From: Candidatus Saccharimonadota bacterium
GTDB taxonomy: Bacteria; Patescibacteriota; Saccharimonadia; Saccharimonadales; UBA4665
Assembly (NCBI GenBank): GCA_963716945.1
Contig: OY970322.1
Coordinates: 300,001-332,000 of the forward strand
DNA length: 32,000 bases
Direction: 5' to 3'
Shown: positions 9,047 through 32,000 of the stretch, one piece after another
Layout: the number at the start of each line of letters is the position of its first letter
Numbering within the stretch: the first letter of the stretch is position 1
Notes under the pieces: model-generated
Seen by the model: the letters and a program-made list of their open reading frames with translations, nothing else
Databases searched by the model: none
Told to the model about the DNA's origin: nothing
Program-made: the position numbers and the translations under genes

Positions 9047-9118
9047 TCGGGGGTGGCTCGGAGTATTTATACGTTTAATAATAACAGATTAGCTTGTGGC
9101 TCGCACCGGTGTCGTAGT

Positions 9119-15883: not shown

Positions 15884-16259
15884 ATGAATGGAATAAGCGG
15901 TGGTGCTAAAATCTACGCTATTGATAGCTATGGAGGGGAAGATGCTCAACGTCTTAGGTTATTTTGTAAGTTCGACTAAAAACCAAATAAAAATCATAAG
16001 AATATAAACTTTAGCGACTCAACTTTCGGGTCGAATGCTCAGTTTGAGAGTTCTGACTTAGCGGGAGCTGATTTAAGGGTGCCATAGTAGGGCCGGGTTT
16101 GTGCTTTGGAGGAACAGCTAACTTAAATAATGCGGATTTCTCCAACGCTACCTGTTTCACGGATAGTGTGAGTTTTACAAATACTAACTTTTCAAACGCA
16201 ACCATTGAAACAAACAGTGACAGCAACGGCAACACTTGCGTTGGACATCTGACACCCTA
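15884..16259 (+). pseudogene. Decayed pentapeptide-repeat protein gene (in-frame stop plus a frameshift)
   Basis: ATG 15884 opens MNGISGGAKIYAIDSYGGEDAQRLRLFCKFD, which meets TAA at 15977-15979. The same frame continues KPNKNHKNINFSDSTFGSNAQFESSDLAGADLRVP* (stop 16085-16087). A 1-nt shifted frame then continues ..GGTANLNNADFSNATCFTDSVSFTNTNFSNATIETNSDSNGNTCVGHLTP* and ends at 16257-16259. This is A(D/N)(L/F)xx pentapeptide periodicity. The region is visibly AT-rich compared with its flanks. Confidence 0.5.
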
Positions 16260-19200: not shown

Positions 19201-22200
19201 GTCCCGTTGCCAGCAACCGAACCCGGCGCCGTGCCGGCAACGGTTACCGATCCTGTTCCGGACTGAAGAGCGATATTACCGCTGGCGTTCTGGATACTAA
19301 TAGCTGTGGCGTTGGCGTTGCCGATGCTGACTTGGCCGGTACTGCTACCGCCGTTAATCGAGGTATTGGAGTTAATGTTGTTGTTGATGTTCACGCCGCT
19401 GAGGCCTTGGATGGTTGTTGTTCCCCCCGTCGCCGACGCTCCCGTACCGATCGTAACGTTAGTCGTCCCGGCCACGTTAGTGTTACCGATGCCGATGGTT
19501 TGGGTATTGCCGGTATTGACTGACGTGGTGCCGATTTGGATCGGTAGGGAACCGACGCTCGTACCGATGTTTATGCCGCCGGTTGAACCGCCCTGGATAC
19601 TGACGGCCGTGTTGGTATTGGTGTTACCGACGTTAACAGTATTGGCGACACTGGAGTTAGTCCCGACCGAGATCGTCCCGCCGCCGCCGGCCTGAATACT
19701 GACCGCCCCCGAACCGGTGCCGCCATTGATGGTCGTCGTACTGGTACTGCCTAAGAGATTGCCGATAGCCACGATGTCGGTCGAGCCGGCAGTGTTGTTA
19801 TTGCCGATACCGATCGTCTGGTTAACGACGTTGCCGGCCGGCCCGTTGCCGATCTGGATAGTATTGCCGCCTATATTGCCGGTGCCGATGTTAATACCGG
19901 CGCCGCCTTGGACATTGACTGTCGTACTGCCGCTGATACTGCCAACGTTGACCGTATTGGCGCTAGTCGTCCCGACGGCGATCGTCCCGCCGCCGCCGGC
20001 CTGAATACTGACCGCCCCCGAACCGGTGCCGCCATTGATGGTCGTCGTACTGCCGCTGTTGGCCGCCGAACCGATGCTGACTACCTGGGCCGTAGTCCCG
20101 TTGCCGGTGTCGGCAATATGGACGGTCGACCCGATAGTCGCCGAACCGACGGCGCCAATGTTGACCGTATTGGCAGTCGTCGTAGCGACATTAACGGTGC
20201 CCGAACTGCCGCCTTGGATGTTAATGGTTGGACTGATTGAATTACCCAAGGCCAGGGTGCCTTGCGATTGGATGGTCGTACTGCCCCCCGTCGCCGACGC
20301 TCCCGTACCGATCGTAACGTTAGTCGTCCCGGCCACGTTAGTGTTACCGATGCCGATGGTTTGGGTATTGCCGGTATTGACTGACGTGGTGCCGATTTGG
20401 ATCGTGTTAGCCACGGCGTTGGCGCCCACGTTAAGCGTACCGCTGGCAGCCGTCTGGAGCGTAAGCGTACCGACCGCCTGAACGGTCGTATTACCGGCTG
20501 TTGCCCCGGTGAAGGCGCCGATGGACACGTTAGTCGTCCCGGCCGCCGTAGTGTTACCGATGCCGATAGTCTGGGTATTGCCGGTATTGGTAGCCGTCGT
20601 ACCAAGCTGGATAGTGTTGGCTACGGCTGTCGTCCCGACGGCGATCGTCCCGCCGCTGCCGGCCTGAATACTGACCGCCCCCGAACCGGTGCCGCCATTG
20701 ATGGTCGTCGTACTGCCGCTGTTGGCCGCCGAACCGATGCTGACTACCTGGGCCGTAGTCCCGTTGCCGGTGTCGGCAATATGGACGGTCGACCCGATAG
20801 TCGCCGAACCGACGGCGCCAATGTTGACCGTATTGGCAGTCGTCGTAGCGACATTAACGGTGCCCGAACTGCCGCCTTGGATGTTAATGGTTGGACTGAT
20901 TGAATTACCCAAGGCCAGGGTGCCTTGCGATTGGATGGTCGTACTGCCCCCCGTCGCCGACGCTCCCGTACCGATCGTAACGTTAGTCGTCCCGGCCACG
21001 TTAGTGTTACCGATGCCGATGGTTTGGGTATTGCCGGTATTGACTGACGTGGTGCCGATTTGGATCGGTAGGGAACCGACGCTCGTACCGATGTTTATGC
21101 CGCCGGTTGAACCGCCCTGGATACTGACGGCCGTGTTGGTATTGGTGTTACCGACGTTAACAGTATTGGCGACACTGGAGTTAGTCCCGACCGAGATCGT
21201 CCCGCCGCCGCCGGCCTGAATACTGACCGCCCCCGAACCGGTGCCGCCATTGATGGTCGTCGTACTGGTACTGCCTAAGAGATTGCCGATAGCCACGATG
21301 TCGGTCGAGCCGGCAGTGTTGTTATTGCCGATACCGATCGTCTGGTTAACGACGTTGCCGGCCGGCCCGTTGCCGATCTGGATAGTATTGCCGCCTATAT
21401 TGCCGGTGCCGATGTTAATACCGGCGCCGCCTTGGACATTGACTGTCGTACTGCCGCTGATACTGCCAACGTTGACCGTATTGGCGCTAGTCGTCCCGAC
21501 GGCGATCGTCCCGCCGCCGCCGGCCTGAATACTGACCGCCCCCGAACCGGTGCCGCCATTGATGGTCGTCGTACTGCCGCTGTTGGCCGCCGAACCGATG
21601 CTGACTACCTGGGCCGTAGTCCCGTTGCCGGTGTCGGCAATATGGACGGTCGACCCGATAGTCGCCGAACCGACGGCGCCAATGTTGACCGTATTGGCAG
21701 TCGTCGTAGCGACATTAACGGTGCCCGAACTGCCGCCTTGGATGTTAATGGTTGGACTGATTGAATTACCCAAGGCCAGGGTGCCTTGCGATTGGATGGT
21801 CGTACTGCCCCCCGTCGCCGACGCTCCCGTACCGATCGTAACGTTAGTCGTCCCGGCCACGTTAGTGTTACCGATGCCGATGGTTTGGGTATTGCCGGTA
21901 TTGACTGACGTGGTGCCGATTTGGATCGTGTTAGCCACGGCGTTGGCGCCCACGTTAAGCGTACCGCTGGCAGCCGTCTGGAGCGTAAGCGTACCGACCG
22001 CCTGAACGGTCGTATTACCGGCTGTTGCCCCGGTGAAGGCGCCGATGGACACGTTAGTCGTCCCGGCCGCCGTAGTGTTACCGATGCCGATAGTCTGGGT
22101 ATTGCCGGTATTGGTAGCCGTCGTACCAAGCTGGATAGTGTTGGCTACGGCTGTCGTCCCGACGGCGATCGTCCCGCCGCTGCCGGCCTGAATACTGACC

Positions 22201-24692
22201 GCCCCCGAACCGGTGCCGCCATTGATGGTCGTCGTACTGCCGCTGTTGGCCGCCGAACCGATGCTGACTACCTGGGCCGTAGTCCCGTTGCCGGTGTCGG
22301 CAATATGGACGGTCGACCCGATAGTCGCCGAACCGACGGCGCCAATGTTGACCGTATTGGCAGTCGTCGTAGCGACATTAACGGTGCCCGAACTGCCGCC
22401 TTGGATGTTAATGGTTGGACTGATTGAATTACCCAAGGCCAGGGTGCCTTGCGATTGGATGGTCGTACTGCCCCCCGTCGCCGACGCTCCCGTACCGATC
22501 GTAACGTTAGTCGTCCCGGCCACGTTAGTGTTACCGATGCCGATGGTTTGGGTATTGCCGGTATTGACTGACGTGGTGCCGATTTGGATCGGTAGGGAAC
22601 CGACGCTCGTACCGATGTTTATGCCGCCGGTTGAACCGCCCTGGATACTGACGGCCGTGTTGGTATTGGTGTTACCGACGTTAACAGTATTGGCGACACT
22701 GGAGTTAGTCCCGACCGAGATCGTCCCGCCGCCGCCGGCCTGAATACTGACCGCCCCCGAACCGGTGCCGCCATTGATGGTCGTCGTACTGGTACTGCCT
22801 AAGAGATTGCCGATAGCCACGATGTCGGTCGAGCCGGCAGTGTTGTTATTGCCGATACCGATCGTCTGGTTAACGACGTTGCCGGCCGGCCCGTTGCCGA
22901 TCTGGATAGTATTGCCGCCTATATTGCCGGTGCCGATGTTAATACCGGCGCCGCCTTGGACATTGACTGTCGTACTGCCGCTGATACTGCCAACGTTGAC
23001 CGTATTGGCGCTAGTCGTCCCGACGGCGATCGTCCCGCCGCCGCCGGCCTGAATACTGACCGCCCCCGAACCGGTGCCGCCATTGATGGTCGTCGTACTG
23101 CCGCTGTTGGCCGCCGAACCGATGCTGACTACCTGGGCCGTAGTCCCGTTGCCGGTGTCGGCAATATGGACGGTCGACCCGATAGTCGCCGAACCGACGG
23201 CGCCAATGTTGACCGTATTGGCAGTCGTCGTAGCGACATTAACGGTGCCCGAACTGCCGCCTTGGATGTTAATGGTTGGACTGATTGAATTACCCAAGGC
23301 CAGGGTGCCTTGCGATTGGATGGTCGTACTGCCCCCCGTCGCCGACGCTCCCGTACCGATCGTAACGTTAGTCGTCCCGGCCACGTTAGTGTTACCGATG
23401 CCGATGGTTTGGGTATTGCCGGTATTGACTGACGTGGTGCCGATTTGGATCGTGTTAGCCACGGCGTTGGCGCCCACGTTAAGCGTACCGCTGGCAGCCG
23501 TCTGGAGCGTAAGCGTACCGACCGCCTGAACGGTCGTATTACCGGCTGTTGCCCCGGTGAAGGCGCCGATGGACACGTTAGTCGTCCCGGCCGCCGTAGT
23601 GTTACCGATGCCGATAGTCTGGGTATTGCCGGTATTGGTAGCCGTCGTACCAAGCTGGATAGTGTTGGCTACGGCTGTCGTCCCGACCGAGACGGTGCCG
23701 CTGGCAGCCGTTTGGATAGAAGTGCTGCTGTTGCTTGATCCGCCGATAGTTATACTGGATGCCGTAGTCGTGCCAATAGAGACAGTGCCATTTGTCCCCG
23801 AACCATTCTTAACCCCGGCATCAATCGTGATATTGCCGCCGTTGCCGTTAGTCCCGCCACCGGCTCCGCCTTGCAGCACCAGGTTGCCGCCGGCCAAAGC
23901 ACTCGCGCCGCTGCCGGCGGCCCCGGCCGATAACGTCAATGAATTCCCGCCGGCCCCCGAGCCGGCCCCCGTCACCGAAATCGTATGGTTGGCATTGTCC
24001 CCGAACGCTATATTGCCGGAGTTGTCGAGCACGAACGCGTCGTTGCCGCCGGACTGCAAGTCCAACAGGTTGCCGGTGCCGGTTTTGTTGATATAAATAC
24101 TGTTCGTGCCGGACGAGGCGTCGGTTTGCAAGCCCTGCGCTATTTGTACGAACTGCGAACTGGACAAGCCGCCCAGCAGGCCGGAGTTAAGCGCGTAGGG
24201 CGCCGAGGTGAACGGCTGCATCGGCGTCATTTCGCCGTCGGGGCTGCACGAAGCGAACGGCGTACACGAAGCGCCCGTGCCGGCGATGTTCATCGACAGC
24301 CACAGGGTGCTCTGGTTCCAGTTGATATTCGAGCCGAACGGTGTAATCGAACCCAGCTCGACCGACAGGTAGCCGTTGACGACCTTGACGCCGTGCCCGG
24401 CGGCGTTGAGGTAATCTTCCGTCCATTTCAGCGAACCGGCCGGCGAACCGGTCGTGTCGCCGACGCTCTGGCCGTCGCCGTCCTGGTAGACCTTGAACTC
24501 GATGTTGTAGTAGCCGTCCGGCACGGTGGCGCCGGCCGAGTTAAGCAGCCGCCCTTGGAAGTTTATTTCCTGGTTGATACCGGTGGCCGCGTGGGCGGGC
24601 TTAGCCGAGAAAAACGAATAAACAAAAAACACGCCTAAAAAGACGCTGCACAGCAGTACCCAACGGCTTATACGGCATAAACCTGTTTTCAT
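16257..24692 (-). CDS. Giant repetitive surface protein (2811 aa), adhesin/fibre-like
   Basis: One uninterrupted 8.4-kb ORF. N-terminal signal/anchor (WVLLCSVFLGVFFVYSFFSAKPAHA). N-terminal globular domain (INFQGRLLNSAGATVPDGYYNIEFKVYQDG...). About 1.4 kaa of xTxxIGxxxxNTGNTQTIGIGNT-type short repeats, beta-helix/beta-roll-like, organised as a 508-aa tandem unit. A Gly-rich GGxGG block (..GAGGNFTVQGGSGGASGAGGTLSLQAGAGG..). Two Cys-bracketed knob motifs, then a C-terminal beta-sandwich (lectin-like) domain. Confidence 0.85.
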   Translation of the reverse strand: MKTGLCRISRWVLLCSVFLGVFFVYSFFSAKPAHAATGINQEINFQGRLLNSAGATVPDGYYNIEFKVYQDGDGQSVGDTTGSPAGSLKWTEDYLNAAGHGVKVVNGYLSVELGSITPFGSNINWNQSTLWLSMNIAGTGASCTPFASCSPDGEMTPMQPFTSAPYALNSGLLGGLSSSQFVQIAQGLQTDASSGTNSIYINKTGTGNLLDLQSGGNDAFVLDNSGNIAFGDNANHTISVTGAGSGAGGNSLTLSAGAAGSGASALAGGNLVLQGGAGGGTNGNGGNITIDAGVKNGSGTNGTVSIGTTTASSITIGGSSNSSTSIQTAASGTVSVGTTAVANTIQLGTTATNTGNTQTIGIGNTTAAGTTNVSIGAFTGATAGNTTVQAVGTLTLQTAASGTLNVGANAVANTIQIGTTSVNTGNTQTIGIGNTNVAGTTNVTIGTGASATGGSTTIQSQGTLALGNSISPTINIQGGSSGTVNVATTTANTVNIGAVGSATIGSTVHIADTGNGTTAQVVSIGSAANSGSTTTINGGTGSGAVSIQAGGGGTIAVGTTSANTVNVGSISGSTTVNVQGGAGINIGTGNIGGNTIQIGNGPAGNVVNQTIGIGNNNTAGSTDIVAIGNLLGSTSTTTINGGTGSGAVSIQAGGGGTISVGTNSSVANTVNVGNTNTNTAVSIQGGSTGGINIGTSVGSLPIQIGTTSVNTGNTQTIGIGNTNVAGTTNVTIGTGASATGGSTTIQSQGTLALGNSISPTINIQGGSSGTVNVATTTANTVNIGAVGSATIGSTVHIADTGNGTTAQVVSIGSAANSGSTTTINGGTGSGAVSIQAGSGGTIAVGTTAVANTIQLGTTATNTGNTQTIGIGNTTAAGTTNVSIGAFTGATAGNTTVQAVGTLTLQTAASGTLNVGANAVANTIQIGTTSVNTGNTQTIGIGNTNVAGTTNVTIGTGASATGGSTTIQSQGTLALGNSISPTINIQGGSSGTVNVATTTANTVNIGAVGSATIGSTVHIADTGNGTTAQVVSIGSAANSGSTTTINGGTGSGAVSIQAGGGGTIAVGTTSANTVNVGSISGSTTVNVQGGAGINIGTGNIGGNTIQIGNGPAGNVVNQTIGIGNNNTAGSTDIVAIGNLLGSTSTTTINGGTGSGAVSIQAGGGGTISVGTNSSVANTVNVGNTNTNTAVSIQGGSTGGINIGTSVGSLPIQIGTTSVNTGNTQTIGIGNTNVAGTTNVTIGTGASATGGSTTIQSQGTLALGNSISPTINIQGGSSGTVNVATTTANTVNIGAVGSATIGSTVHIADTGNGTTAQVVSIGSAANSGSTTTINGGTGSGAVSIQAGSGGTIAVGTTAVANTIQLGTTATNTGNTQTIGIGNTTAAGTTNVSIGAFTGATAGNTTVQAVGTLTLQTAASGTLNVGANAVANTIQIGTTSVNTGNTQTIGIGNTNVAGTTNVTIGTGASATGGSTTIQSQGTLALGNSISPTINIQGGSSGTVNVATTTANTVNIGAVGSATIGSTVHIADTGNGTTAQVVSIGSAANSGSTTTINGGTGSGAVSIQAGGGGTIAVGTTSANTVNVGSISGSTTVNVQGGAGINIGTGNIGGNTIQIGNGPAGNVVNQTIGIGNNNTAGSTDIVAIGNLLGSTSTTTINGGTGSGAVSIQAGGGGTISVGTNSSVANTVNVGNTNTNTAVSIQGGSTGGINIGTSVGSLPIQIGTTSVNTGNTQTIGIGNTNVAGTTNVTIGTGASATGGTTTIQGLSGVNINNNINSNTSINGGSSTGQVSIGNANATAISIQNASGNIALQSGTGSVTVAGTAPGSVAGNGTGANAAFTVAGAAGGATSGTTGQTAGAGSVITLTSGTGGAANGASGANVGGAGGTFTLQGGAGGNVTSATGTAGAGGTLSLAAGNAGAGGNGTANGGAITLTTGNGTASGAGGNFTVQGGSGGASGAGGTLSLQAGAGGSTSGSGGAVNLTAGAGTAGNAAGGALTFTSGAGQGNAAGGNINLTLGAPGATGTNGQVVIQGTAPGSVAGNGTNATTILSVTGVAGGASSGTTGQTAGTGSGISLTTGAGGAASGTSGANTGGSGGNFSFTAGNGGATASTAAAAAGGIGGGLTFTAGTGGAETGSGAAATVAGTGGAITIQGGTGGAVTSTGGTGGSGGALTLKGGTAGTGGTTAGAGGTVTIQGGAAAASAGSAGGGVSITAAAGSSTGVGGNGGGVSITAGNGNGSGGNSNGGNITLQAGSAIGTGSIGGVIIQNAANSATALNIRNISSLSVLTVDTAGDQLKVFDGTASQHYISLSYNDGTSTGTISVDSGTTAVGSGSGPISILAGTGASITMTANASSVWQTTAGSLTLQSGTSSNLILTSGSSIVQVSGSSVVKFGQSAGDPVTCTAGAIVYNTSTNTLRGCQGSTPTWNDLINITPTLQQAYTDSSAGSPEIRLDTTRGTLNVQGDAGNSVATLFSVDQGSSGNSLFSVANSGNVTIQDTSGDQELATTSADVTIGAGNSPHGSNPIVLDLDNYQPVTGGNGEPTEEDGAMYYDADAGLFRCGANGLWQTCGINEIESSYNFEDEFLGGSAGAGSQVGVGALGWNVTQLTGTGSTCTVSYNQNTSGVGPGVHHDHPGTLRLTTDAAAASHGCVMTEGGTGAGAGTLNEVIGTGDVFKSNIAVSTATGTMIAGWTNQTSATAPVSGAWWQYTGGNLQYCYGNGTSSTCATATTLAVNTWAEVEIHVNATNSITFVYSIGGTGNTFNTSTTFDPGTTHNLGPEASCVTSTTTAQNCYVDYIQWSGYNTSGDNVRD
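19423..23687 (-). repeat. Perfect 1524-bp (508-codon) in-frame tandem repeat, about 2.8 copies, inside the giant gene
   Basis: The sequence at x equals the sequence at x+1524 from 19423 until it diverges after 23687. All six-frame ORF translations recur identically at +1524 (19717/21241/22765; 20026/21550/23074; 20689/22213). Within each unit a block of about 0.4 kb occurs twice, at 663/861-bp spacing (for example 20026 vs 20689). Confidence 0.9.
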
Positions 24693-24773
24693 GTTTTTGT
24701 ATCTGTTTTAGTGGTTTGTTAATGCCCAGAGATTTTTGTTTGCCTCACACGCGAGGTTTCTCTAAGTGTCTTT

Positions 24774-24802
24774 AGTATAAGCTTCATACCTGTTTTTGCC
24801 AA
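24774..24802 (-). promoter_or_regulatory. Sigma70-like promoter (TTGGCA-N17-TATACT) for the giant gene
   Basis: The minus strand reads TTGGCA aaaacaggtatgaagct TATACT. The predicted 5' UTR is about 75 nt, contains a cctc-gcgtgt-gagg hairpin and has no clear Shine-Dalgarno. Confidence 0.45.
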
Positions 24803-24845
24803 GTATTTTTTCAGATGTTTTAACAGGGGTAGGGTTTTTGGGCTT

Positions 24846-24916
24846 CCCAAAACCGGTTTTTGGGGCTGTTCCCACGGGCCGGGAGCAAGTCTCGCCGGAA
24901 CGGTAGGGAAGAGCCC
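24846..24916. other. GC-rich structured element (two adjacent hairpins) in an AT-rich divergent intergenic region
   Basis: Hairpin 1: cccaaaa (24846-24852) / ttttggg (24858-24864). Hairpin 2: gggctgttccc (24863-24873) pairs with gggaagagccc (24906-24916) with one mismatch and encloses an inner ccgggag-caagt-ctc(g)ccgg stem. It is not needed as a terminator, because the flanking genes diverge. Confidence 0.3.
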
Positions 24917-24968
24917 GCCGCAGTGATTTATTATCATACTTTCTCATGATCTTTTCATATCCCAAGTA

Positions 24969-24997
24969 TTGTAGGTATGAAAAAGCCATGATAGAAT
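24969..24997 (+). promoter_or_regulatory. Sigma70-like promoter (TTGTAG-N17-TGaTAGAAT) for the 25001 gene
   Basis: TTGTAG at 24969-24974, 17-nt spacer, TAGAAT at 24992-24997 preceded by TG. ATG 25001 is only 3 nt downstream and ATG 25007 is 9 nt downstream, so the transcript is leaderless or nearly so and the true start may be 25007. Confidence 0.4.
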
Positions 24998-25000
24998 TAA

Positions 25001-25450
25001 ATGGCAATGCCGACCTCCAAGAAGTACAAATCAAAACGGGCCGCGGAGGAGACGCTGAAGCGGTTTTTCGCGGCCAACCCGGGCTCGGATACGGTTTCGG
25101 TCGAAGAAATCTTCCAGGCCACCGGCCGCCACGGCAAACCGGCGCGCGCCAACATGGCCTGGCTGTCCAATAAGCTGACCGATCTGCGCTACCATGACCT
25201 AATCGATTCCGAATACTCCTACCAGGGTAAACGTCGCCTCAAGGGCATCAGCCTGTCGCTGGACGGCAAACGGGCGCTGGGCCGGGCCGGCAGCGGTCCG
25301 GCCGCCACGCCGGACCCCCAGCCCGGTAACCGCCCCGGGAGCGGCCAGGCGGTCTCTCTGGAAGACGCCTTGATGATCGTCAGCCAGCTGAAGCGGCGTT
25401 ACCCCGAGTTCGACATCGACCTGACCGTCAAACCCAAGAACAAGGCTTAA
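25001..25450 (+). CDS. Small basic protein (149 aa), possible winged-helix DNA-binding regulator
   Basis: Full ORF transcribed divergently from the giant gene. The N-terminal 100 aa read like a wHTH (VSVEEIFQATGRHGKPARANMAWLSNKLTDLRYHDLIDSEY..GKRRLKGISLSLDGKRAL). A Pro/Gly linker and a short C-terminal helix follow. The functional call is tentative. Confidence 0.55.
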   Translation: MAMPTSKKYKSKRAAEETLKRFFAANPGSDTVSVEEIFQATGRHGKPARANMAWLSNKLTDLRYHDLIDSEYSYQGKRRLKGISLSLDGKRALGRAGSGPAATPDPQPGNRPGSGQAVSLEDALMIVSQLKRRYPEFDIDLTVKPKNKA

Positions 25451-25496
25451 GCAAATAGGTATTAAACGGCTACCGGCCTGGGCGACCGGCAGTTAG

Positions 25497-26492
25497 CTAA
25501 ACCTGGGCGTGGGGAATAGGCCCGAGCGGCGGGTTCTGGACCGGCACGGCAGCAGCCAAGAGGTGCTTCTCGCGGCGTTCGCCCATCCAGAAGCTGACCA
25601 CCAGGGTAGCGGCGATAGCGTAGAGGGGCCAGAGGACCAGCAGTTTGCTGGTTGCCGGCTTCGAGCCGGCGGTGCCGCCGGCTGTCAGGACGGCACTGGG
25701 CTGACCGTTGACGATGGCGGCGACGGTCAGGAAAGCTACCCGCTGCTGGCTGTCGGTAGCCTGCAGCGTAATCTGGTAGGTGCCGGGCTTCTGGTAGGTG
25801 TGGGAGGCGTTGAAGACGGTGTTGTCGCCGCGGGGAATGACTTGGTTGCTGGAATCACCCCACTCGACATTGACGGCGAACGGCTCGGTGCCGCCGATGA
25901 TAGTGACCGGCACGTTAAGCACCTGGCCGGGAAAAGTGCCGCGGTAAACGGCGTTGGTGTCCAATAGCAGCTGCGTACCGCTGAAGTTCAGCAGGCTGAG
26001 CGGCGCGTTAACCGGCGGCACGGCGTCATAAAACACGTTGACCGTCTTCGACACCGGCCCGGCCTGGTTAAGGTCGTCATAGACCTGGGCGGTGAGGCTG
26101 TTCTCGCCGTATAGCAGGTCTATCTGGAATGAGTAGGTGCCTTTGTTGTCACACACGCCGGAGCCGGCGAAAATGTTGTTCTTGTAGATCTCAACCAGCG
26201 TGCCCGACGGGCAGGTACCGGAGATCGTTATCGGCGAGCTGCTGAAGTGCTGCTGGTCGGCCGGCGAAGTGATGGTGGCGGCTACTTTGGGCGGTACGCC
26301 GGGGACGGTACCGGTCAGGCTGACCGAGTCGGATTGCGGCGGCGGGCTGGCGGCAAAAGTCGAAACGGAGAACATAACCAGTATCAGGCCCACGGCTAAA
26401 ACTAGACACGCCAGGGGGATGTAGGATGTGTGTTCGTGGGGCCGGAGGCGGCCGCTGTGTTTGTGTTGGCTTATTTTTAACGGACCGTACAT
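25497..26492 (-). CDS. Doubly membrane-anchored surface protein (331 aa) with Ig-like and PKD-like domains
   Basis: N-terminal basic His-rich motif KISQHKHSGRLRPHEHTSY followed by a TM segment (IPLACLVLAVGLILVMFSV). Ig-like segment (ITSPADQQHFSSSPITISGTCPSGTLVEIYKNN). PKD signature (VEWGDSSNQ...ASHTYQKPGTYQITLQATDSQ). C-terminal TM segment (LLVLWPLYAIAATLVVSFWM). Confidence 0.75.
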   Translation of the reverse strand: MYGPLKISQHKHSGRLRPHEHTSYIPLACLVLAVGLILVMFSVSTFAASPPPQSDSVSLTGTVPGVPPKVAATITSPADQQHFSSSPITISGTCPSGTLVEIYKNNIFAGSGVCDNKGTYSFQIDLLYGENSLTAQVYDDLNQAGPVSKTVNVFYDAVPPVNAPLSLLNFSGTQLLLDTNAVYRGTFPGQVLNVPVTIIGGTEPFAVNVEWGDSSNQVIPRGDNTVFNASHTYQKPGTYQITLQATDSQQRVAFLTVAAIVNGQPSAVLTAGGTAGSKPATSKLLVLWPLYAIAATLVVSFWMGERREKHLLAAAVPVQNPPLGPIPHAQV

Positions 26493-26500
26493 ACGAGCCT

Positions 26501-26509
26501 ATTATACCA
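26501..26509 (-). promoter_or_regulatory. Extended -10 promoter element (TGGTATAAT) for the 331-aa gene
   Basis: The minus strand reads TGGTATAAT, then 8 nt (aggctcgt), then ATG 26492. No Shine-Dalgarno, so the mRNA is near-leaderless. Confidence 0.45.
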
Positions 26510-26568
26510 CTTGTGCTATGAATTCAGCCCTGGCGCAAGCGGACGGTTTTACTTCGGTAAAGGTAAAG

Positions 26569-27603
26569 CTATTGCTGCGGGTTCGGGTCTCTAGGCGGCT
26601 GCTGCCGCTTCTGAGCCTGTTCCAGGATGCGGCGGTTGTAGCGGCGGATAGCGTAGCGCAGGATGAAGAAGGCGGCGATCAGCAGGACGATGATGATACC
26701 GATCGTGCGGTAAGGGATAACCCAGAAGACCAGGCTGGCCGTCAGGACTTTCTTGCTGGTGCCGTAGGTAACCTTCAGTTTGGCGGTGTAGCGTCCGAAC
26801 AGTTTCTTGTTGCCGATGACCGTCTTATCAAGCGGTTGGCTGAACTTGCGAATGCTCTGGGGCAGAATGTTTCCGGGGGGGACATTGACGTTGACGGCCC
26901 CCAGTTCTTTGCCGAACATATCGGTTACGGTTACCTGGCCGGTGGGCTGGACGTGGACGTTACCGGTGTTTTTGAAGCGTTCGACGAAGTTGACCGGGCC
27001 GGCCGAGAAGAAGGTACCGGTTTGGCCGTTGTGGTTTACCGAAAACTCCTGCACGTTGAGGTTCTCGGTAATCTTGCCGTTAACGGTCAGCAACACCAGC
27101 GCGCCCAGGCTGGCGGAAAGCGACACGCCGCTGCCTTGGAGCGACGGCGCGGTGGCGGTGAAACGGATAACGCCGTAGTGGCCGCCGGGCGAAGCGTTAG
27201 CCGGAATGTGAAAAGTTACCGGCAGGGTCTTAATCTGTTTGGGAATAAGCTGCAGGGTGGGCAAAGCCGCTACCCAGCCTTTCAGCGAGTAAGGGTCGTT
27301 GTCGTTATTGTTCAAAAGCACTTTTGGCGTACCGGTTTCGCCGTCGGCTACGAAATCGTTGACCTGGCCGGTAACGATCAGGTCGCCGCTGGAAATGTCG
27401 CGGATATAAATCTGGCTGTTTATGGTCTGGCCGGGGTTTACCGTCAGGTAGAGCAGGGGCGGCGCGATTTCGAGCGCCTGGCCGTTGTTGGCAGTGCTGG
27501 AAGGGGATGCCGCCGGGGTGGCTGCGAGAGCCGGGGCGGTCATCTCCAAGCAGAGCGCGATTAAGGAAGCGCCGGTTAGTATGAGTTTAGTAAGTTTCTG
27601 CAT
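26569..27603 (-). CDS. Signal-peptide + two-beta-domain + C-terminal-TM protein, architecture of DUF916/DUF3324 (WxL-interacting protein) family
   Basis: Signal peptide (LILTGASLIALCLEMTAPALAA). The first half reads LEIAPPLLYLTVNPGQTINSQIYIRDISSGDLIVTGQVNDF. The second half reads QVTVTDMFGKELGAVNVNVPPGNILPQSIRKFSQPL...GRYTAKLKVTYG. C-terminal TM anchor with a basic tail (VIPYRTIGIIIVLLIAAFFILRYAIRRYNRR). Only 4 nt separate it from the upstream paralog gene. Confidence 0.7.
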   Translation of the reverse strand: MQKLTKLILTGASLIALCLEMTAPALAATPAASPSSTANNGQALEIAPPLLYLTVNPGQTINSQIYIRDISSGDLIVTGQVNDFVADGETGTPKVLLNNNDNDPYSLKGWVAALPTLQLIPKQIKTLPVTFHIPANASPGGHYGVIRFTATAPSLQGSGVSLSASLGALVLLTVNGKITENLNVQEFSVNHNGQTGTFFSAGPVNFVERFKNTGNVHVQPTGQVTVTDMFGKELGAVNVNVPPGNILPQSIRKFSQPLDKTVIGNKKLFGRYTAKLKVTYGTSKKVLTASLVFWVIPYRTIGIIIVLLIAAFFILRYAIRRYNRRILEQAQKRQQPPRDPNPQQ

Positions 27604-27607
27604 AATC

Positions 27608-28732
27608 TTAGAAAGTAGCCGTACAGATATAAGTTAGGGTGGTGGTGTAGGTTCCGACAGCCTGGGCACCATTCACGTTGACTATATAAGACGTCGTATA
27701 AATTTGCGAGTCGGTCGGTCCGGCACCGCCGTCAGCACTATTGGCTACAGGATCTCCGCTTAGATACTTAAAGGTATCAGCCGTACTGTAACCTGTCAAT
27801 GGCTGACCCTTGTAATTGGTGCCGTTGGCAGCCGGGGTCAGGGCGGTTCCGACGGCCGGTGTCGACGTGGCCGTGGTATTAGGCATAAGGTTGAGCCCGA
27901 ACTGGCTGGTGCCGCGTACACCCACGCCGGCGGTACTCATGGCCGTGACGGTATTGCTGCCGGCGGTCAGCGTCGGCCCGTTAACGGTTATGCTGTAGCC
28001 CGAAGCGGCATTGGTCGAGGCCGACATCTGCGAGGTGGCCGTCGCCGTATCGGATGGCGAGAACAGCTGGTTGAAGTTAATGGCGCCGCTGGTGGCCGTC
28101 GAGCAGTCCGGCACGCCGCCGGTAGTCCCGATGGTGCCGCCGGTACAGAAAATCAATGATTCGGGCATGGTACCGGTCAGCGTGATCTGGTTGGCCGTGC
28201 TGGCGGCTACCGTTCCGGTGTCGGTCGGACTGCCGCTCGTATCGGTCGAGGCAAAGGTGGATATCCGGACGTAGAAGGTCTGGTTCGCCGTAGTCGGGTT
28301 GGTTATGCCGGTCAATTGTTCGGTAACGGTCGTGCCTGCCGTGACCGAGGCTGACGTCCGGGTCAGGTAAGGCGCGCCGTTAGTGGTGTTAACCACGCTA
28401 GTAAAGGTAGCGCCGCTGTGGGTGCCGTAAGCGGCCGACGTAGTAACCAGACCGGTCGGCGTAGTACAGGTTCCGCCGGCCGTCGTACAGTACAAAAATT
28501 GGATTGAGCCCACGTTAGTGTTACCGACCGACGGCAAGGTAAAAGTGAACAAATGGTTAACGACGCCGCCGGGTTTGGACCCGCCGTCACTGACGCCGGC
28601 TTGCAGCGTCAGGCTGCGCGAAGTGATCTGCGCCGCCGCTACTCTCCCCGATGGAAGCAGTGAAAAGACCATTAGACTTAGGCCGCCCATAGCGAGCACA
28701 AGTCGAACCAGCTTCCTTCCACTCCAAGTCAT
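27608..28732 (-). CDS. Secreted Thr/Ser/Gly-rich surface protein, paralog C (374 aa), WxL-like C-terminal strand
   Basis: Signal peptide MTWSGRKLVRLVLAMGGLSLMVFSLLPSGRVAAA|QITSRS. Conserved Cys pairs (LYCTTAGGTC; FCTGG..PDC). Terminal motif VGTYTTTLTYICTATF-COOH. Own promoter at 28739-28768. Confidence 0.8.
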   Translation of the reverse strand: MTWSGRKLVRLVLAMGGLSLMVFSLLPSGRVAAAQITSRSLTLQAGVSDGGSKPGGVVNHLFTFTLPSVGNTNVGSIQFLYCTTAGGTCTTPTGLVTTSAAYGTHSGATFTSVVNTTNGAPYLTRTSASVTAGTTVTEQLTGITNPTTANQTFYVRISTFASTDTSGSPTDTGTVAASTANQITLTGTMPESLIFCTGGTIGTTGGVPDCSTATSGAINFNQLFSPSDTATATSQMSASTNAASGYSITVNGPTLTAGSNTVTAMSTAGVGVRGTSQFGLNLMPNTTATSTPAVGTALTPAANGTNYKGQPLTGYSTADTFKYLSGDPVANSADGGAGPTDSQIYTTSYIVNVNGAQAVGTYTTTLTYICTATF

Positions 28733-28738
28733 GCCTAA

Positions 28739-28768
28739 ATACTACCATGAGCATTTCATTGCAGTCAA
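28739..28768 (-). promoter_or_regulatory. Sigma70-like promoter (TTGACT-N18-TGgTAGTAT), leaderless start at 28732
   Basis: The minus strand reads TTGACT (28768-28763), an 18-nt spacer, TAGTAT (28744-28739) preceded by TG, then 6 nt (ttaggc) and the ATG. No Shine-Dalgarno. Confidence 0.55.
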
Positions 28769-28811
28769 AAGAACTTATCCCCGTTTTTAAGTTAACAAAC
28801 CGGGCCGGCTG

Positions 28812-29930
28812 CTAGAAGGTCGGCGTACAGATATAAGTCAGGGTAGTGGTGTAGGTTCCGGCAGGCTGGCTACCAGGGACGTTAGCGATGTAGGATACGG
28901 TAAATATCTGGGCGTCGGAGCCGCCAGGGCCGCCATTGGCGCTGTTAGCCACGCTGTCCGTGCTTGTGAACTTAAAGTTGTCGACGGCATTGTAGCCGGT
29001 AATAGCCTGGCCCCTGTAGTTAGTGCCGTTAGCCGCCGGTGCCACCTCGGTTCCGACCGCCGGTGTCGACGTGGCCGTGGTGTTGGCTTTCAGGTTGAGG
29101 CCGAACTGGCTGGTACCGCGGATACCGGTAGTCGAAGTACCCATAGCGACGATGGTGTTGCTACCGGACGTCAGCGTCGGCCCGTTAACGGTTATGTTGT
29201 AGCCCGAACCGGCGTTGGTCGAAGCCGCCATCTGCGAGGTGGCCGTCGCCGTATCGGTAGGCGAGAAGAGCTGGTTGAAGCTGACGGCGCCGCTGGTAGC
29301 CGTCGAGCAGTCCGGCACGCCGCCGGTAGTCCCGACCGTGCCGCCGGCACAGAACACCAGGGACTCGGGCATGGTGCCGCTGACGACTATTTGGGTGGCG
29401 GTACTGGCGGCTACATTACCGGTATCTGTCGCGCTGCCGCTCGTATCGGTCGAGGCAAAGGTGGATATCCGGACGTAGAAGGCTTGGTTCGCCGTAGTCG
29501 GGTTGGTTACCCCCAGCAACTGGTAGCTAAGCGCCGTACCCGAAGAGATACTGGCTGCCGTACGGGTAATGTACGGAGCCCCGTTGGTGGTGTTGACAAT
29601 ACTGAAGCCGGTAGCGCCGCTTTGGGTACCCATGGTAGCCGACGTAGTAACCAGACCGGTCGGCGTAGTACAGGTTCCGGCCGCGGTGGTGCAATAAAGG
29701 AACTGAATCGAGCCGACATTACCGGTACTGCCGGTCGTGAAGTTGAACAAATGGTTAACGACGCCGCCGGGTTTGGACCCGCCGTCACTGACGCCGGCTT
29801 GCAGCGTCAGGCTGCGCGAAGTGATCTGCGCCGCCGCTACTCTCCCCGATGGAAGCAGTGAAAAGACCATTAGACTTAGGCCGCCCATAGCGAGCACAAG
29901 TCGAACCAGCTTCCTTCCACTCCAAGTCAT
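28812..29930 (-). CDS. Secreted Thr/Ser/Gly-rich surface protein, paralog B (372 aa), a mosaic of paralogs C and A
   Basis: The first 62 aa and the upstream promoter are identical to paralog C. The remainder is identical to paralog A except for a central patch that contains a 49-bp tract identical to C. It ends AGTYTTTLTYICTPTF-COOH. Confidence 0.8.
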   Translation of the reverse strand: MTWSGRKLVRLVLAMGGLSLMVFSLLPSGRVAAAQITSRSLTLQAGVSDGGSKPGGVVNHLFNFTTGSTGNVGSIQFLYCTTAAGTCTTPTGLVTTSATMGTQSGATGFSIVNTTNGAPYITRTAASISSGTALSYQLLGVTNPTTANQAFYVRISTFASTDTSGSATDTGNVAASTATQIVVSGTMPESLVFCAGGTVGTTGGVPDCSTATSGAVSFNQLFSPTDTATATSQMAASTNAGSGYNITVNGPTLTSGSNTIVAMGTSTTGIRGTSQFGLNLKANTTATSTPAVGTEVAPAANGTNYRGQAITGYNAVDNFKFTSTDSVANSANGGPGGSDAQIFTVSYIANVPGSQPAGTYTTTLTYICTPTF

Positions 29931-29936
29931 GCCTAA

Positions 29937-29966
29937 ATACTACCATGAGCATTTCATTGCAGTCAA
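29937..29966 (-). promoter_or_regulatory. Second copy of the TTGACT-N18-TGgTAGTAT leaderless promoter (start at 29930)
   Basis: Identical sequence to 28739-28768, displaced by 1198 bp. Confidence 0.55.
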
Positions 29967-30009
29967 AAGAACTTATCCCCGTTTTTAAGTTAACAAACCG
30001 GGCCGGCTG

Positions 30010-31149
30010 CTAGAAGGTCGGCGTACAGATATAAGTCAGGGTAGTGGTGTAGGTTCCGGCAGGCTGGCTACCAGGGACGTTAGCGATGTAGGATACGGTA
30101 AATATCTGGGCGTCGGAGCCGCCAGGGCCGCCATTGGCGCTGTTAGCCACGCTGTCCGTGCTTGTGAACTTAAAGTTGTCGACGGCATTGTAGCCGGTAA
30201 TAGCCTGGCCCCTGTAGTTAGTGCCGTTAGCCGCCGGTGCCACCTCGGTTCCGACCGCCGGTGTCGACGTGGCCGTGGTGTTGGCTTTCAGGTTGAGGCC
30301 GAACTGGCTGGTACCGCGGATACCGGTAGTCGAAGTACCCATAGCGACGATGGTGTTGCTACCGGACGTCAGCGTCGGCCCGTTAACGGTTATGTTGTAG
30401 CCCGAACCGGCGTTGGTCGAAGCCGCCATCTGCGAGGTGGCCGTCGCCGTATCGGTAGGCGAGAAGAGCTGGTTGAAGCTGACGGCGCCGCTGGTAGCCG
30501 TCGAGCAGTCCGGCACGCCGCCGGTAGTCCCGACCGTGCCGCCGGCACAGAACACCAGGGACTCGGGCATGGTGCCGGTCAGCGTGATCTGAGAAGCCGT
30601 GCTGGCAGCCACGTTGCCGGTGTCGGTCGCGCTGCCCGTGGTGTCGGTAGAAGCGAAAGTCGAGAGGCGCACATAGAAAGTCTGGTTCGCCGTAGTCGGG
30701 TTGGTTACCCCCAGCAACTGGTAGCTAAGCGCCGTACCCGAAGAGATACTGGCTGCCGTACGGGTAATGTACGGAGCCCCGTTGGTGGTGTTGACAATAC
30801 TGAAGCCGGTAGCGCCGCTTTGGGTACCCATGGTAGCCGACGTAGTAACCAGACCGGTCGGCGTAGTACAGGTTCCGGCCGCGGTGGTGCAATAAAGGAA
30901 CTGAATCGAGCCGACATTACCGGTACTGCCGGTCGTGAAGTTGAACAAATGGTTAACGACGCCACCGGGCTGCGAACCGCCATCCGTAACGCCCGCCTCA
31001 AGGGTCAGGCTGCGGCTGGTAATCTGCGAGGCAGAGACGCTGGCCGGTATAGAGGAGAGAGTTCCTACTACTAGACCTGCCACAAATAGTACAGCTATGA
31101 GGAATGATAATTTAGATTTTTGGAACATTTTTGTTTTTAGTTTATCCAC
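30010..31149 (-). CDS. Secreted Thr/Ser/Gly-rich surface protein, paralog A (379 aa)
   Basis: Its signal peptide differs from B and C (KLSFLIAVLFVAGLVVGTLSSIPASVSA|SQITSRS). The longest ORF starts at GTG 31147-31149, with an alternative ATG at 31126-31128 (MFQKSK). The mature part is near-identical to paralog B. Confidence 0.8.
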   Translation of the reverse strand: MDKLKTKMFQKSKLSFLIAVLFVAGLVVGTLSSIPASVSASQITSRSLTLEAGVTDGGSQPGGVVNHLFNFTTGSTGNVGSIQFLYCTTAAGTCTTPTGLVTTSATMGTQSGATGFSIVNTTNGAPYITRTAASISSGTALSYQLLGVTNPTTANQTFYVRLSTFASTDTTGSATDTGNVAASTASQITLTGTMPESLVFCAGGTVGTTGGVPDCSTATSGAVSFNQLFSPTDTATATSQMAASTNAGSGYNITVNGPTLTSGSNTIVAMGTSTTGIRGTSQFGLNLKANTTATSTPAVGTEVAPAANGTNYRGQAITGYNAVDNFKFTSTDSVANSANGGPGGSDAQIFTVSYIANVPGSQPAGTYTTTLTYICTPTF

Positions 31150-31219
31150 GAAGAGCGTAACAGAAATTTCAGCCTCTTGTCAAGGCATATTTACGCAAGC
31201 GCTATGGTCTGTGGAAAAG

Positions 31220-31942
31220 TTAATAAGTACCGGTACACAATATCGTCTGGCCGCCGGTATAGTTACCGCCCGGCGTCAGGCTGCTGACGTTGACTATATA
31301 ACTTATGGTGTAGGTGGTCTGGCCGGAGCTTTTGGGGGCCGTAGCGATGGTGTCGCCGCTGTTGAACTGGTAGCTATTGGAGGTGTTGTAGCCAGCGGCC
31401 GCCGAGCCCGTGCCGAACTGGCCGTGGTCGGGGTTAAAGCCCAGCGAAGTCGGCAGCGTATTGGCTACCAGGTTGATGCCGAACTGTTCGACACCTGTCT
31501 GGGAGGGCGCGGCCGAGGCAATGCCGGAGATAACGTGCGCCCCGTTCGTCGGCGGGTTGCCAAAAATCTGGACGACGTAGCCGTAGCTGGTATAGTCGAG
31601 CACCTGGAAGCTCGAGGTCGCGGTCGCCGTGGTGCTTGGCGAGAAGTCGCCGAAGCTGACATTGGAAGAGTTAACGGCGAAGGCCAGCGCCGGGTCGCTG
31701 GTGGTGGTGTTGCCGGCATTGATCTGGAAGCTGGCCGAAGCCGAGTTCCCAATACCCAGGATGCCGGCCGAAGTCGAGGCTTGGTAGTCGGGCGACTGGG
31801 TATCGAGGATACTGTTGCCGCCGAGGGCGCTTTCTTCGAACTGGTAGTTGGTCGACTTAAGGGTATCGGCAAAAGCGGCCGACGCGGTGACCGCGACGGT
31901 GCAGACCACGACCACGGACAAACATAACCTCGGCTTCACCAT
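31220..31942 (-). CDS. Short paralog D (about 240 aa) of the same secreted family, first gene of the locus
   Basis: Preferred start is ATG 31940-31942 (MVKPRLCLSVVVVCTVAVTASAAFA|DTLKS, a good signal peptide). The ORF is open to 31990. It ends GGNYTGGQTILCTGTY-COOH, the same terminal pattern as A/B/C. A CAATAT -10-like box lies 6 nt upstream of the ATG. Confidence 0.7.
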   Translation of the reverse strand: MVKPRLCLSVVVVCTVAVTASAAFADTLKSTNYQFEESALGGNSILDTQSPDYQASTSAGILGIGNSASASFQINAGNTTTSDPALAFAVNSSNVSFGDFSPSTTATATSSFQVLDYTSYGYVVQIFGNPPTNGAHVISGIASAAPSQTGVEQFGINLVANTLPTSLGFNPDHGQFGTGSAAAGYNTSNSYQFNSGDTIATAPKSSGQTTYTISYIVNVSSLTPGGNYTGGQTILCTGTY

Positions 31943-32000
31943 ATCTTTATATTGTTGCTGAACCGGGGGTATTTTGCAAACCGCTAACACTTGGTCATGG

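Follow-up and report, generated by a model that had tools for sequence, protein, structure and literature searches.

Pam pili, a class of pilus described only in 2026, are the thin filaments by which a parasitic Saccharibacterium contacts its host. Troman et al. examined the filaments of Ca. Mycosynbacter amalyticus by cryo-electron microscopy (cryo-EM) (bioRxiv 10.64898/2026.03.03.709456). The pilins PamA and PamB each consist of a sandwich of nine strands at the N terminus, a single linker strand, and a truncated immunoglobulin (Ig)-like domain at the C terminus, and they polymerize by insertion of the linker strand into the C-terminal domain of a neighbor. PamC and PamD are chaperones of the PapD/FimC kind anchored by a transmembrane (TM) helix, PamT is a single-domain tip pilin without the linker, and PamR, which is RbmA-like and has a strand at its N terminus and a TM helix at its C terminus, was proposed to terminate and anchor the fiber. 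Here we analyze a six-gene locus in a stretch of 32,000 nucleotides (nt), the window, from a Candidatus Saccharimonadota bacterium (contig OY970322.1, positions 300,001 to 332,000). We put at about 0.9 the probability that it is a pam operon, encoding the Pap/Fim-like pilus of Mycosynbacter, in a Saccharimonadales bacterium (candidate phyla radiation [CPR]/Patescibacteria), with assembly by donor-strand exchange.

A second described system enters the comparison. In Enterococcus, Lactobacillus, and Listeria, WxL clusters encode small WxL and large WxL proteins together with WxLIP, which consists of DUF916, DUF3324, and a TM helix (PMC9772566, PMC10599100; structures 9i1y and 9i25). AlphaFold2 (AF2) predicts that a hairpin of WxLIP completes the WxL sandwich (PMC10599100). 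The Pam preprint nowhere mentions WxL, DUF916, or DUF3324. An earlier note on this DNA had read the locus either as a remote branch of the WxL system or as a new surface system.

Results

A probable pam operon with conserved gene order

Six co-directional genes occupy the minus strand from 25497 to 31990 (Table 1). The open reading frame (ORF) listing agrees with the earlier note on their coordinates and sizes, and the signal peptides, low charge, and common C-terminal strand that it had described were borne out by the listing and by composition. From gene D to the gene for the 331-amino-acid (aa) protein, the intergenic gaps are 70, 79, 79, 4, and 76 nt. NCBIfam release 20 recognizes PamT, PamR, and the pilin C-terminal domain at this locus. 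The PamT model (CPR_pilus_PamT equivalog, NF058579) matches the short paralog D with 272.8 bits (cutoff, 240) over profile positions 7-241 of 241, and the PamR equivalog (CPR_pilus_PamR, NF058578) matches the 331-aa protein with 336.5 bits (cutoff, 300). Pam_pilin_C (NF058581; cutoff, 55) scores 143.8, 143.9, and 134.8 bits on the long paralogs A, B, and C and 158.3 bits on D. All three models derive from the Troman et al. preprint, and these matches place the proteins in the Pam families directly.

A Pfam scan of the six proteins returned no match for the four paralogs or the 344-aa protein and gave Ig and PKD signals in PamR only (Big_7, 25.8 bits with a cutoff of 24.1; Glucodextran_B; PKD below threshold). 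In PamR, a probable signal peptide and a predicted donor strand precede Ig-like and PKD-like domains, and the protein closes with a TM helix at its C terminus. It had been described as an Ig- and PKD-like protein anchored at both ends. The domain signals and the C-terminal anchor hold, and the N-terminal hydrophobic stretch, which ends in TFA|AS, looks more like a signal peptide that is cleaved off and less like a second anchor.

The gene order is strongly conserved. A scan of GTDB representative genomes yielded 80 loci, nearly all titled Saccharibacteria or Saccharimonadales. In all 70 whose contig spans the whole stretch, PamT, one to four two-domain pilins, a chaperone, PamR, and a giant protein are encoded on one strand; the remaining 10 are interrupted by contig ends. 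Only one chaperone is present per surveyed related locus. A giant-protein homolog directly follows pamR in 76 of the 80, the contig ending first in the other four. The earlier note had named conservation of the neighborhood as a check, and the recurrence of the same order in 80 loci of other genomes indicates that the arrangement is not due to chance. At one related locus (L008), genes for the ATP synthase alpha, gamma, and beta subunits lie upstream of pamT, as in the preprint; the region here that matches this position lies past the window's end at 32000. Homologs number 2914 for pilin A and 1537 for the 344-aa protein. All listed homologs of the latter lack protein names, those with a named source come from Saccharimonadales metagenome-assembled genomes, and an identical copy is found on an NCBI contig.

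The locus is therefore not the new surface system that had been suggested, as the Pam system is already known from the preprint and from NCBIfam release 20. It is one more copy, in a simple form with a single chaperone.

A predicted donor-strand motif shared by pilin linkers and PamR

To follow the donor strand across the operon, we used family alignments from the 80 loci, with shuffled sequences as a control. Of 150 pilins, 130 carry the pattern [IV]x[LIV][TSDN][GA]x[MVI]P near residue 190, in the interdomain linker, and 58 of 78 PamR proteins carry it near residue 58, at the mature N terminus. It occurs in none of 75 PamT proteins, none of 81 chaperones, and 0.3-0.5% of shuffled sequences. 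The linker consensus in pilins is Q-I-x-L-[TS]-G-x-M-P-E (I, 95%; L, 82%; G, 94%; M, 93%; P, 92%; E, 100%), and PamR carries S-[IV]-x-L-[TS]-G-x-[MV]-P directly after the signal peptide (L, 80%; G, 97%; P, 91%). PamT would thus accept only, the pilins both accept and donate, and PamR donate only, and this is the pattern that donor-strand exchange predicts. The distribution of the motif, which is observed directly, gives independent support, drawn from sequence, to the tip/shaft/terminator model that the preprint based on AlphaFold.

The tip subunit and the pilins

Pilins A and B are 92% identical and A and C 74% identical; A and D share 35% identity over the C-terminal domain. All four paralogs close with the pattern xGxYTxxxTxxCTxT[F/Y] (AGTYTTTLTYICTPTF, VGTYTTTLTYICTATF, GGNYTGGQTILCTGTY). 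Each has about 6% charged residues (D, E, K, R), 47-53% S+T+G+A, and 0-1 Trp, so the near lack of charge, the missing diagnostic Trp, and the shared terminal pattern noted previously apply throughout. The conserved Cys pairs reported for these proteins are a feature of the long paralogs, which have two pairs and, near the C terminus, a further Cys that is unpaired; in mature D this single Cys is the only one. This residue, four positions from the C terminus (30010-30024, ...ICTPTF; 31220-31234, ...LCTGTY), is kept in most pilins and PamTs, with Ala or Val in a few. Mature PamT offers it no partner, and in pilins it is the odd one out of five Cys. It could form an intersubunit disulfide or serve as a modification site.

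In the 256-aa ORF of gene D, the match to the PamT model does not start until residue 24, and ATG 31942, giving 240 aa, is most likely the start. Pilin A may begin at Met8 (31128), a residue nearly invariant among homologs. The N-terminal domain of pilin A is modeled by AF2 as a nine-strand beta-sandwich at a predicted local distance difference test (pLDDT) score of 74-93. Foldseek searches with this model, in which the C-terminal domain is unmodeled, gave weak generic Ig-like matches only (E >= 7e-4). Among 47 pilin homologs, 6 weakly match Pfam DUF7498 (best E = 1.5e-4) and 5 match YdgH_BhsA-like.

Pilin B is a mosaic at the DNA level. It matches unit C at 100% identity over the first 296 aligned nt, a stretch that takes in the upstream region, the signal peptide, and ~60 initial codons, and it matches unit A, again at 100%, in alignment columns 301-550 and 701-1234. 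A patch of ~150 nt is unlike either unit; it spans the last part of the N-terminal domain together with the donor-strand linker. Possible explanations are gene conversion among the tandem pilin genes or an assembly chimera. Identical sigma-70-like sites (TTGACT, 18 nt, TAGTAT, extended TG) are present at 28739-28768 and 29937-29966 on the minus strand, upstream of pilin genes C and B and within the duplicated upstream segment. From these sites, individual pilin genes may have promoters of their own.

The membrane-anchored chaperone and its relation to WxLIP

The AF2 model of the 344-aa protein (42 homologs; pLDDT, 77) comprises a signal peptide, beta-sandwiches at residues ~50-174 and ~182-295, a helix at 298-333, and a basic tail, in keeping with the two beta-rich halves, TM anchor, and basic tail described earlier. 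In a Foldseek comparison to the PDB, the top three matches all come from the Enterococcus faecium WxLIP structure (9i1y, E = 5.8e-10) and from that of WxLIP in complex with long WxL (9i25, E = 2.1e-9). The CEP192 SPD-2 domain (7ptb, E = 1.4e-8) and RbmA come next, then the chaperones of chaperone-usher systems CfaA, CsuC, Caf1M, DraB, and FimC (E = 1e-8 to 1e-6). The alignment to WxLIP runs over ~250 columns and covers both domains; the TM-scores are modest (0.45-0.53 on target), as expected where the hinge between two domains differs. The fold is thus that of a two-Ig chaperone.

Sequence comparison points the same way for the first domain. Pfam PF06030 (WxLIP_PGBD, formerly DUF916) is matched by 25 of 42 close homologs (best E, 5e-6), and PapD_N by 2 of the 42 only (E = 0.06). 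Syntenic orthologs from more distant genomes match PF06030 with 32.3 (L076), 32.3 (L064), and 28.1 (L071) bits (cutoff, 27.3), spanning profile positions 20-120 of 121. As a reference set, 29 metagenome loci (L082-L110) were retrieved through the WxLIP motif NQIDKxxxYFDLK. Alignment of the Pam chaperone family to 21 WxLIPs with hhalign gave 70-80% probability over 102-103 columns, and domain 1 against the WxLIP PGBD alone gave 88.9% (P = 2.4e-6, 102 columns). The real score was 40.8, compared with 22.9 for a reversed target and 12-16 for column-shuffled targets. Domain 2 against DUF3324/HBD reached 4.7%, which is not significant, and no DUF3324 Pfam match was found in the window chaperone, the 42 homologs, or the syntenic orthologs. 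It is well supported that the chaperone family is a remote homolog of WxLIP (DUF916) in its first domain, with the same overall architecture. The proposal of a DUF916/DUF3324-like anchored partner therefore stands for domain 1, through PF06030, hhalign, and Foldseek; for DUF3324 there is no match at the level of sequence. This tie goes beyond the preprint and is the one new lead.

Other comparisons were set aside or came back empty. Home-made hidden Markov models (HMMs) of WxL and WxLIP, run against the Pam families with hmmsearch, scored at most 22 bits and were dropped as evidence because controls scored too, probably via signal-peptide or TM segments. A match of PamR to WxLIP (hhalign, 54% over 31 columns) is taken as a generic Ig-strand match and calls for caution on short hits. 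PDB sequence searches with single proteins and with the chaperone and pilin family profiles found no matches; the PamA and PamB coordinates therefore cannot be reached there by sequence, and the likeness to WxLIP is invisible to plain HMMER against single chains. No paper on structures 9i1y and 9i25 turned up in the literature. NCBIfam release 20 has no model for the chaperone of the window or of loci L008, L064, L076, and L081, so annotation pipelines leave it 'hypothetical', although PF06030 reaches some orthologs.

A candidate complementing strand lies late in the first domain of the chaperone. Across 81 orthologs, the segment G159-V-S-L-S-A-S-L-G-x-L169 is 80-100% conserved (V, 97%; L, 98%; A, 97%; S, 100%; G, 100%; L, 100%). 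Residues 158-163, which overlap it, are the sole internal stretch with a pLDDT below 50. The segment takes the position of the WxLIP hairpin predicted to complete the WxL sandwich, and on these grounds it may act as the complementing strand.

The subunits are not recognizable WxL proteins

The four paralogs had been proposed as WxL-domain proteins, and they fail as such in each of the comparisons made here. Pfam WxL has no match in the window proteins (E <= 1) or in 47 pilin homologs (E <= 10), and Trp-x-Leu motifs are absent from all four. With hhalign, the pilin C-terminal domain or PamT against small-WxL and large-WxL alignments reached at most 2.2% probability; positive controls gave 99.9% (pilin C-terminal domain versus PamT) and 97.2% (small versus large WxL). 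It is the Pam pilin models that match instead.

The sole hhalign signal above shuffles is a 22-column C-terminal hairpin (20.7 versus <= 12.7), and the likeness between the two families is limited to this terminal strand. By eye, it reads ...VPGSxPxxxxYTTTLTWxL (VPGS..Y.TTLTW.L) in WxL proteins and ...VPGSQPAGTYTTTLTYIC in pilins, so the resemblance of the terminal strand noted previously is real in that hairpin only. Chaperone-usher pilins, too, typically end in a G-x-Y...alternating...[FY]-COOH strand, and the hairpin therefore cannot separate common ancestry from convergence.

The surroundings agree. No LPXTG sorting signal is found in any real gene of the window and no sortase in the window, as had been stated. 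The locus has no WxL proteins, its relatives are Saccharimonadales, and the GC content of the window is 50-70%. We have rejected its reading as a WxL cluster, since the defining WxL domain was looked for and not found. In the metagenome reference set, 26 of 29 loci hold a WxLIP gene, 20 of those with WxL genes on the same strand and nearly always upstream; the order of subunits first and WxLIP last is common to WxL clusters and the pam operon. The fullest of these clusters have one large WxL gene, two to four small WxL genes, and WxLIP last.

Neighboring genes

The giant protein downstream of pamR is taken to be the preprint's 'tail fibre-like protein' and is a candidate pilus component. Ser, Thr, Gly, and Ala make up 59% of its residues, and neither Pfam nor NCBIfam gave a match for it. 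Its gene contains three tandem 1524-nt units that are 99-100% identical. A separate repeat search found these; Tandem Repeats Finder returned nothing for the gene, because the repeat period exceeds 500 nt. The gap between pamR and the giant gene (24693-25496) is 804 nt here, compared with ~30-300 nt in related loci, and holds an ORF on the plus strand (25001-25450; 149 aa; 28% D/E/K/R) that has no family match and was found only in a contig of the same genome (L001). This opposite-strand ORF could represent an insertion specific to the lineage and perhaps encodes a small regulator.

Two enzymes of the cell wall are encoded side by side at 7751-11305. They are a YkuD L,D-transpeptidase with PG_binding_4 (7751-9046, minus strand) and a 760-aa M14 carboxypeptidase with Big_5 (9023-11305, plus strand), which overlaps a long antisense ORF at 9884-11236.

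Table 1. Features of the pam locus and the adjoining giant gene, in window coordinates
Feature	Position	Strand	Description	Basis
pamT (gene D)	31220-31942	-	Single-domain tip pilin, 240 aa from ATG 31942; ORF reaches GTG 31990 (256 aa)	NF058579
Pam pilin A	30010-31149	-	Two-domain pilin, 379 aa; possible start Met8 (31128)	NF058581
Predicted donor strand, pilin A	30565-30588	-	ITLTGTMP	Motif, translation-checked
Pam pilin B	28812-29930	-	Two-domain pilin, 372 aa; C/A mosaic	NF058581
Predicted donor strand, pilin B	29367-29390	-	IVVSGTMP	Motif, translation-checked
Pam pilin C	27608-28732	-	Two-domain pilin, 374 aa	NF058581
Predicted donor strand, pilin C	28163-28186	-	ITLTGTMP	Motif, translation-checked
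Chaperone	26569-27603	-	344 aa, membrane-anchored, two Ig domains, PamC/PamD type, WxLIP-like	
Candidate G1-like complementing strand, chaperone	27097-27129	-	GVSLSASLGAL, residues 159-169	Conservation, 81 orthologs
pamR	25497-26492	-	331 aa, RbmA-like, proposed terminator/anchor	NF058578
Donor-strand-like motif, PamR	26301-26324	-	VSLTGTVP	Same motif as pilin linker
Giant protein	16257-24692	-	2811 aa, Gly/Thr/Ser/Ala-rich, secreted	Homolog after pamR in related loci

Discussion

To explain how these genes could build a fiber, we propose an assembly that carries the M. amalyticus system over by homology. All six products would be exported by Sec. The pilin C-terminal Ig-like domain would lack one strand, and the membrane-anchored 344-aa chaperone would hold the domain by lending its own. 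PamT (D), with an acceptor groove and no donor strand, would start the fiber at the distal tip, and pilins A, B, and C would be added in succession, the linker strand of each (QI-x-L-T-G-T-M-P-E) entering the groove of the previous subunit. PamR, with the same strand motif at its mature N terminus and a C-terminal TM helix, would cap the proximal end and hold the fiber at the cytoplasmic membrane. Assembly would require neither an usher nor a sortase nor an ATPase. In this scheme we infer in what order the subunits assemble, which strand of the chaperone does the complementing, and what PamR does. The earlier note had offered polymerization by strand complementation with the 344-aa protein as membrane platform, and this anticipated the preprint well: the cryo-EM study showed the former for Pam pilins and proposed the latter for the chaperone.

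Several points weigh against this reading. The source for the Pam system is a preprint (bioRxiv 10.64898/2026.03.03.709456), filaments have been observed only in M. amalyticus, and in the present organism the locus is known from its genes alone, so that filament formation here would follow by homology. The window's own 344-aa protein matches no Pfam or NCBIfam model, and its assignment therefore draws on its fold and its orthologs. The C-terminal domain of pilin A is modeled by AF2 at a pLDDT of ~30, and the acceptor groove is not visible in the model; such a result is plausible for a domain whose fold is completed only by another chain's strand. Finally, there is one chaperone here instead of PamC and PamD, and there are three near-identical pilins instead of the distinct PamA, PamB, and PamE, so details of assembly order may differ.

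The rival that deserves most attention is a true but divergent WxL cluster, in which small and large WxL proteins that bind peptidoglycan noncovalently are held by WxLIP as a surface complex and not a polymer. The chaperone family does belong to WxLIP_PGBD and finds its best structural matches in WxLIP, the layout is the same, with WxL genes followed by WxLIP on one strand, and the C-terminal strands are similar. Against this, the pilins fail the Pfam WxL, Trp-x-Leu, and hhalign (<=2.2%) comparisons and pass Pam models whose founding members were filaments in cryo-EM, and the donor motif of pilin linkers and PamR would have no role if nothing polymerized. We consider this explanation improbable.

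Less probable still is a surface layer or sheath of low-charge, Thr/Ser/Gly-rich paralogs with the two anchored proteins as attachment factors. The extreme composition, the number of paralogs, and the giant repetitive secreted protein adjoining them would suit such a structure, but the Pfam and NCBIfam scans gave no match to a surface-layer family, and the pilus-family matches, the chaperone fold, and the division into acceptor-only, dual, and donor-only proteins argue for a linear fiber, making a layer very unlikely. A pilus assembled by sortase in the Gram-positive manner, or a classical chaperone-usher pilus, is hardly credible. The subunits are Ig-like, the pilin N-terminal domain weakly matches EbpB and RrgB (Foldseek E ~1e-3), and the chaperone model resembles chaperone-usher chaperones; however, the window contains no LPXTG protein or sortase, there is no usher, the chaperone is TM anchored, and an outer membrane is not expected in Saccharibacteria.

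As a further pam operon the locus alone adds little, being another copy in the single-chaperone form, which is the only form among the surveyed Saccharimonadales loci. Most Pam copies in public genomes still carry the label 'hypothetical protein'. Beyond the preprint, the analysis provides a donor-strand motif common to pilin linkers and the PamR N terminus across ~80 genomes, and evidence that tandem pilin genes may exchange segments, which could vary the fiber surface. It also places the chaperone in the WxLIP/DUF916 family, tying an unexplained, widespread, virulence-linked surface locus of Gram-positive bacteria to a testable donor-strand mechanism.

Compared with the Pam pilus of M. amalyticus, the agreement is extensive. 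The curated models (NF058579, NF058578, NF058581) recognize PamT, PamR, and the pilin C-terminal domain above cutoff; the pilins would likewise consist of two domains, the N-terminal one modeled with nine strands and followed by a predicted linker strand; and the chaperone is TM anchored with two Ig domains. The host is likewise a CPR bacterium, with ATP synthase (seen in a related locus) and a giant fiber-like protein as neighbors. Besides the differences in chaperone and pilin number weighed above, the pilins here are ~38 kDa, the size of PamB, with no 55-kDa pilin of the PamA type; pilin B is mosaic; and a small opposite-strand gene lies between pamR and the giant gene.

The Pam system works like a chaperone-usher pilus minus the usher. 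Like the Pap and Fim, archaic Csu, and class 5 CFA/I pili, it has pilin domains with an incomplete Ig-like fold and donor-strand complementation and exchange, a two-Ig chaperone that matches CfaA, CsuC, Caf1M, and FimC by Foldseek, a G-x-Y...[FY]-COOH terminal strand, a tip subunit that has no strand to donate, and a subunit that terminates the fiber. Unlike them, it has no outer membrane and no usher, with no usher-sized gene in the operon in the window or in related loci; the chaperone here is tethered by a TM helix, and the donor strand is the internal linker of a two-domain protein and not an N-terminal extension. The Pam fiber is also extended instead of coiled (bioRxiv 10.64898/2026.03.03.709456).

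The comparison with WxL clusters is more divided. Domain 1 of the partner protein is homologous to that of WxLIP, and the two proteins have a common build of signal peptide, two Ig-like domains, and C-terminal TM helix; a small domain-only subunit accompanies larger subunits with the same domain at the C terminus; and strand complementation (predicted for the WxLIP hairpin), a monoderm host, and the lack of an usher are common to both. In contrast, the subunits here are without Trp-x-Leu, a WxL Pfam match, or profile similarity beyond the C-terminal strand, and there is no DUF3324 sequence match, no LPXTG partner, and a CPR host instead of Firmicutes. WxL proteins are not known to polymerize, and their clusters have no terminator of the PamR type.

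These likenesses raise the possibility, to which we give rather less than even odds, that Pam pili and the WxL clusters of Firmicutes are two branches of an old usher-less donor-strand system of bacteria with a single membrane, built around a membrane-anchored chaperone of the WxLIP type. A common origin would bear on the function of WxLIP and WxL proteins as well as on the origin of Pam pili. WxLIP would then be an assembly chaperone rather than a host-binding anchor, and WxL proteins would be subunits completed by a strand of another protein, which might assemble into short chains. The preprint does not settle where Pam pili came from; on this view their roots would be closer to WxL than to Pap/Fim.

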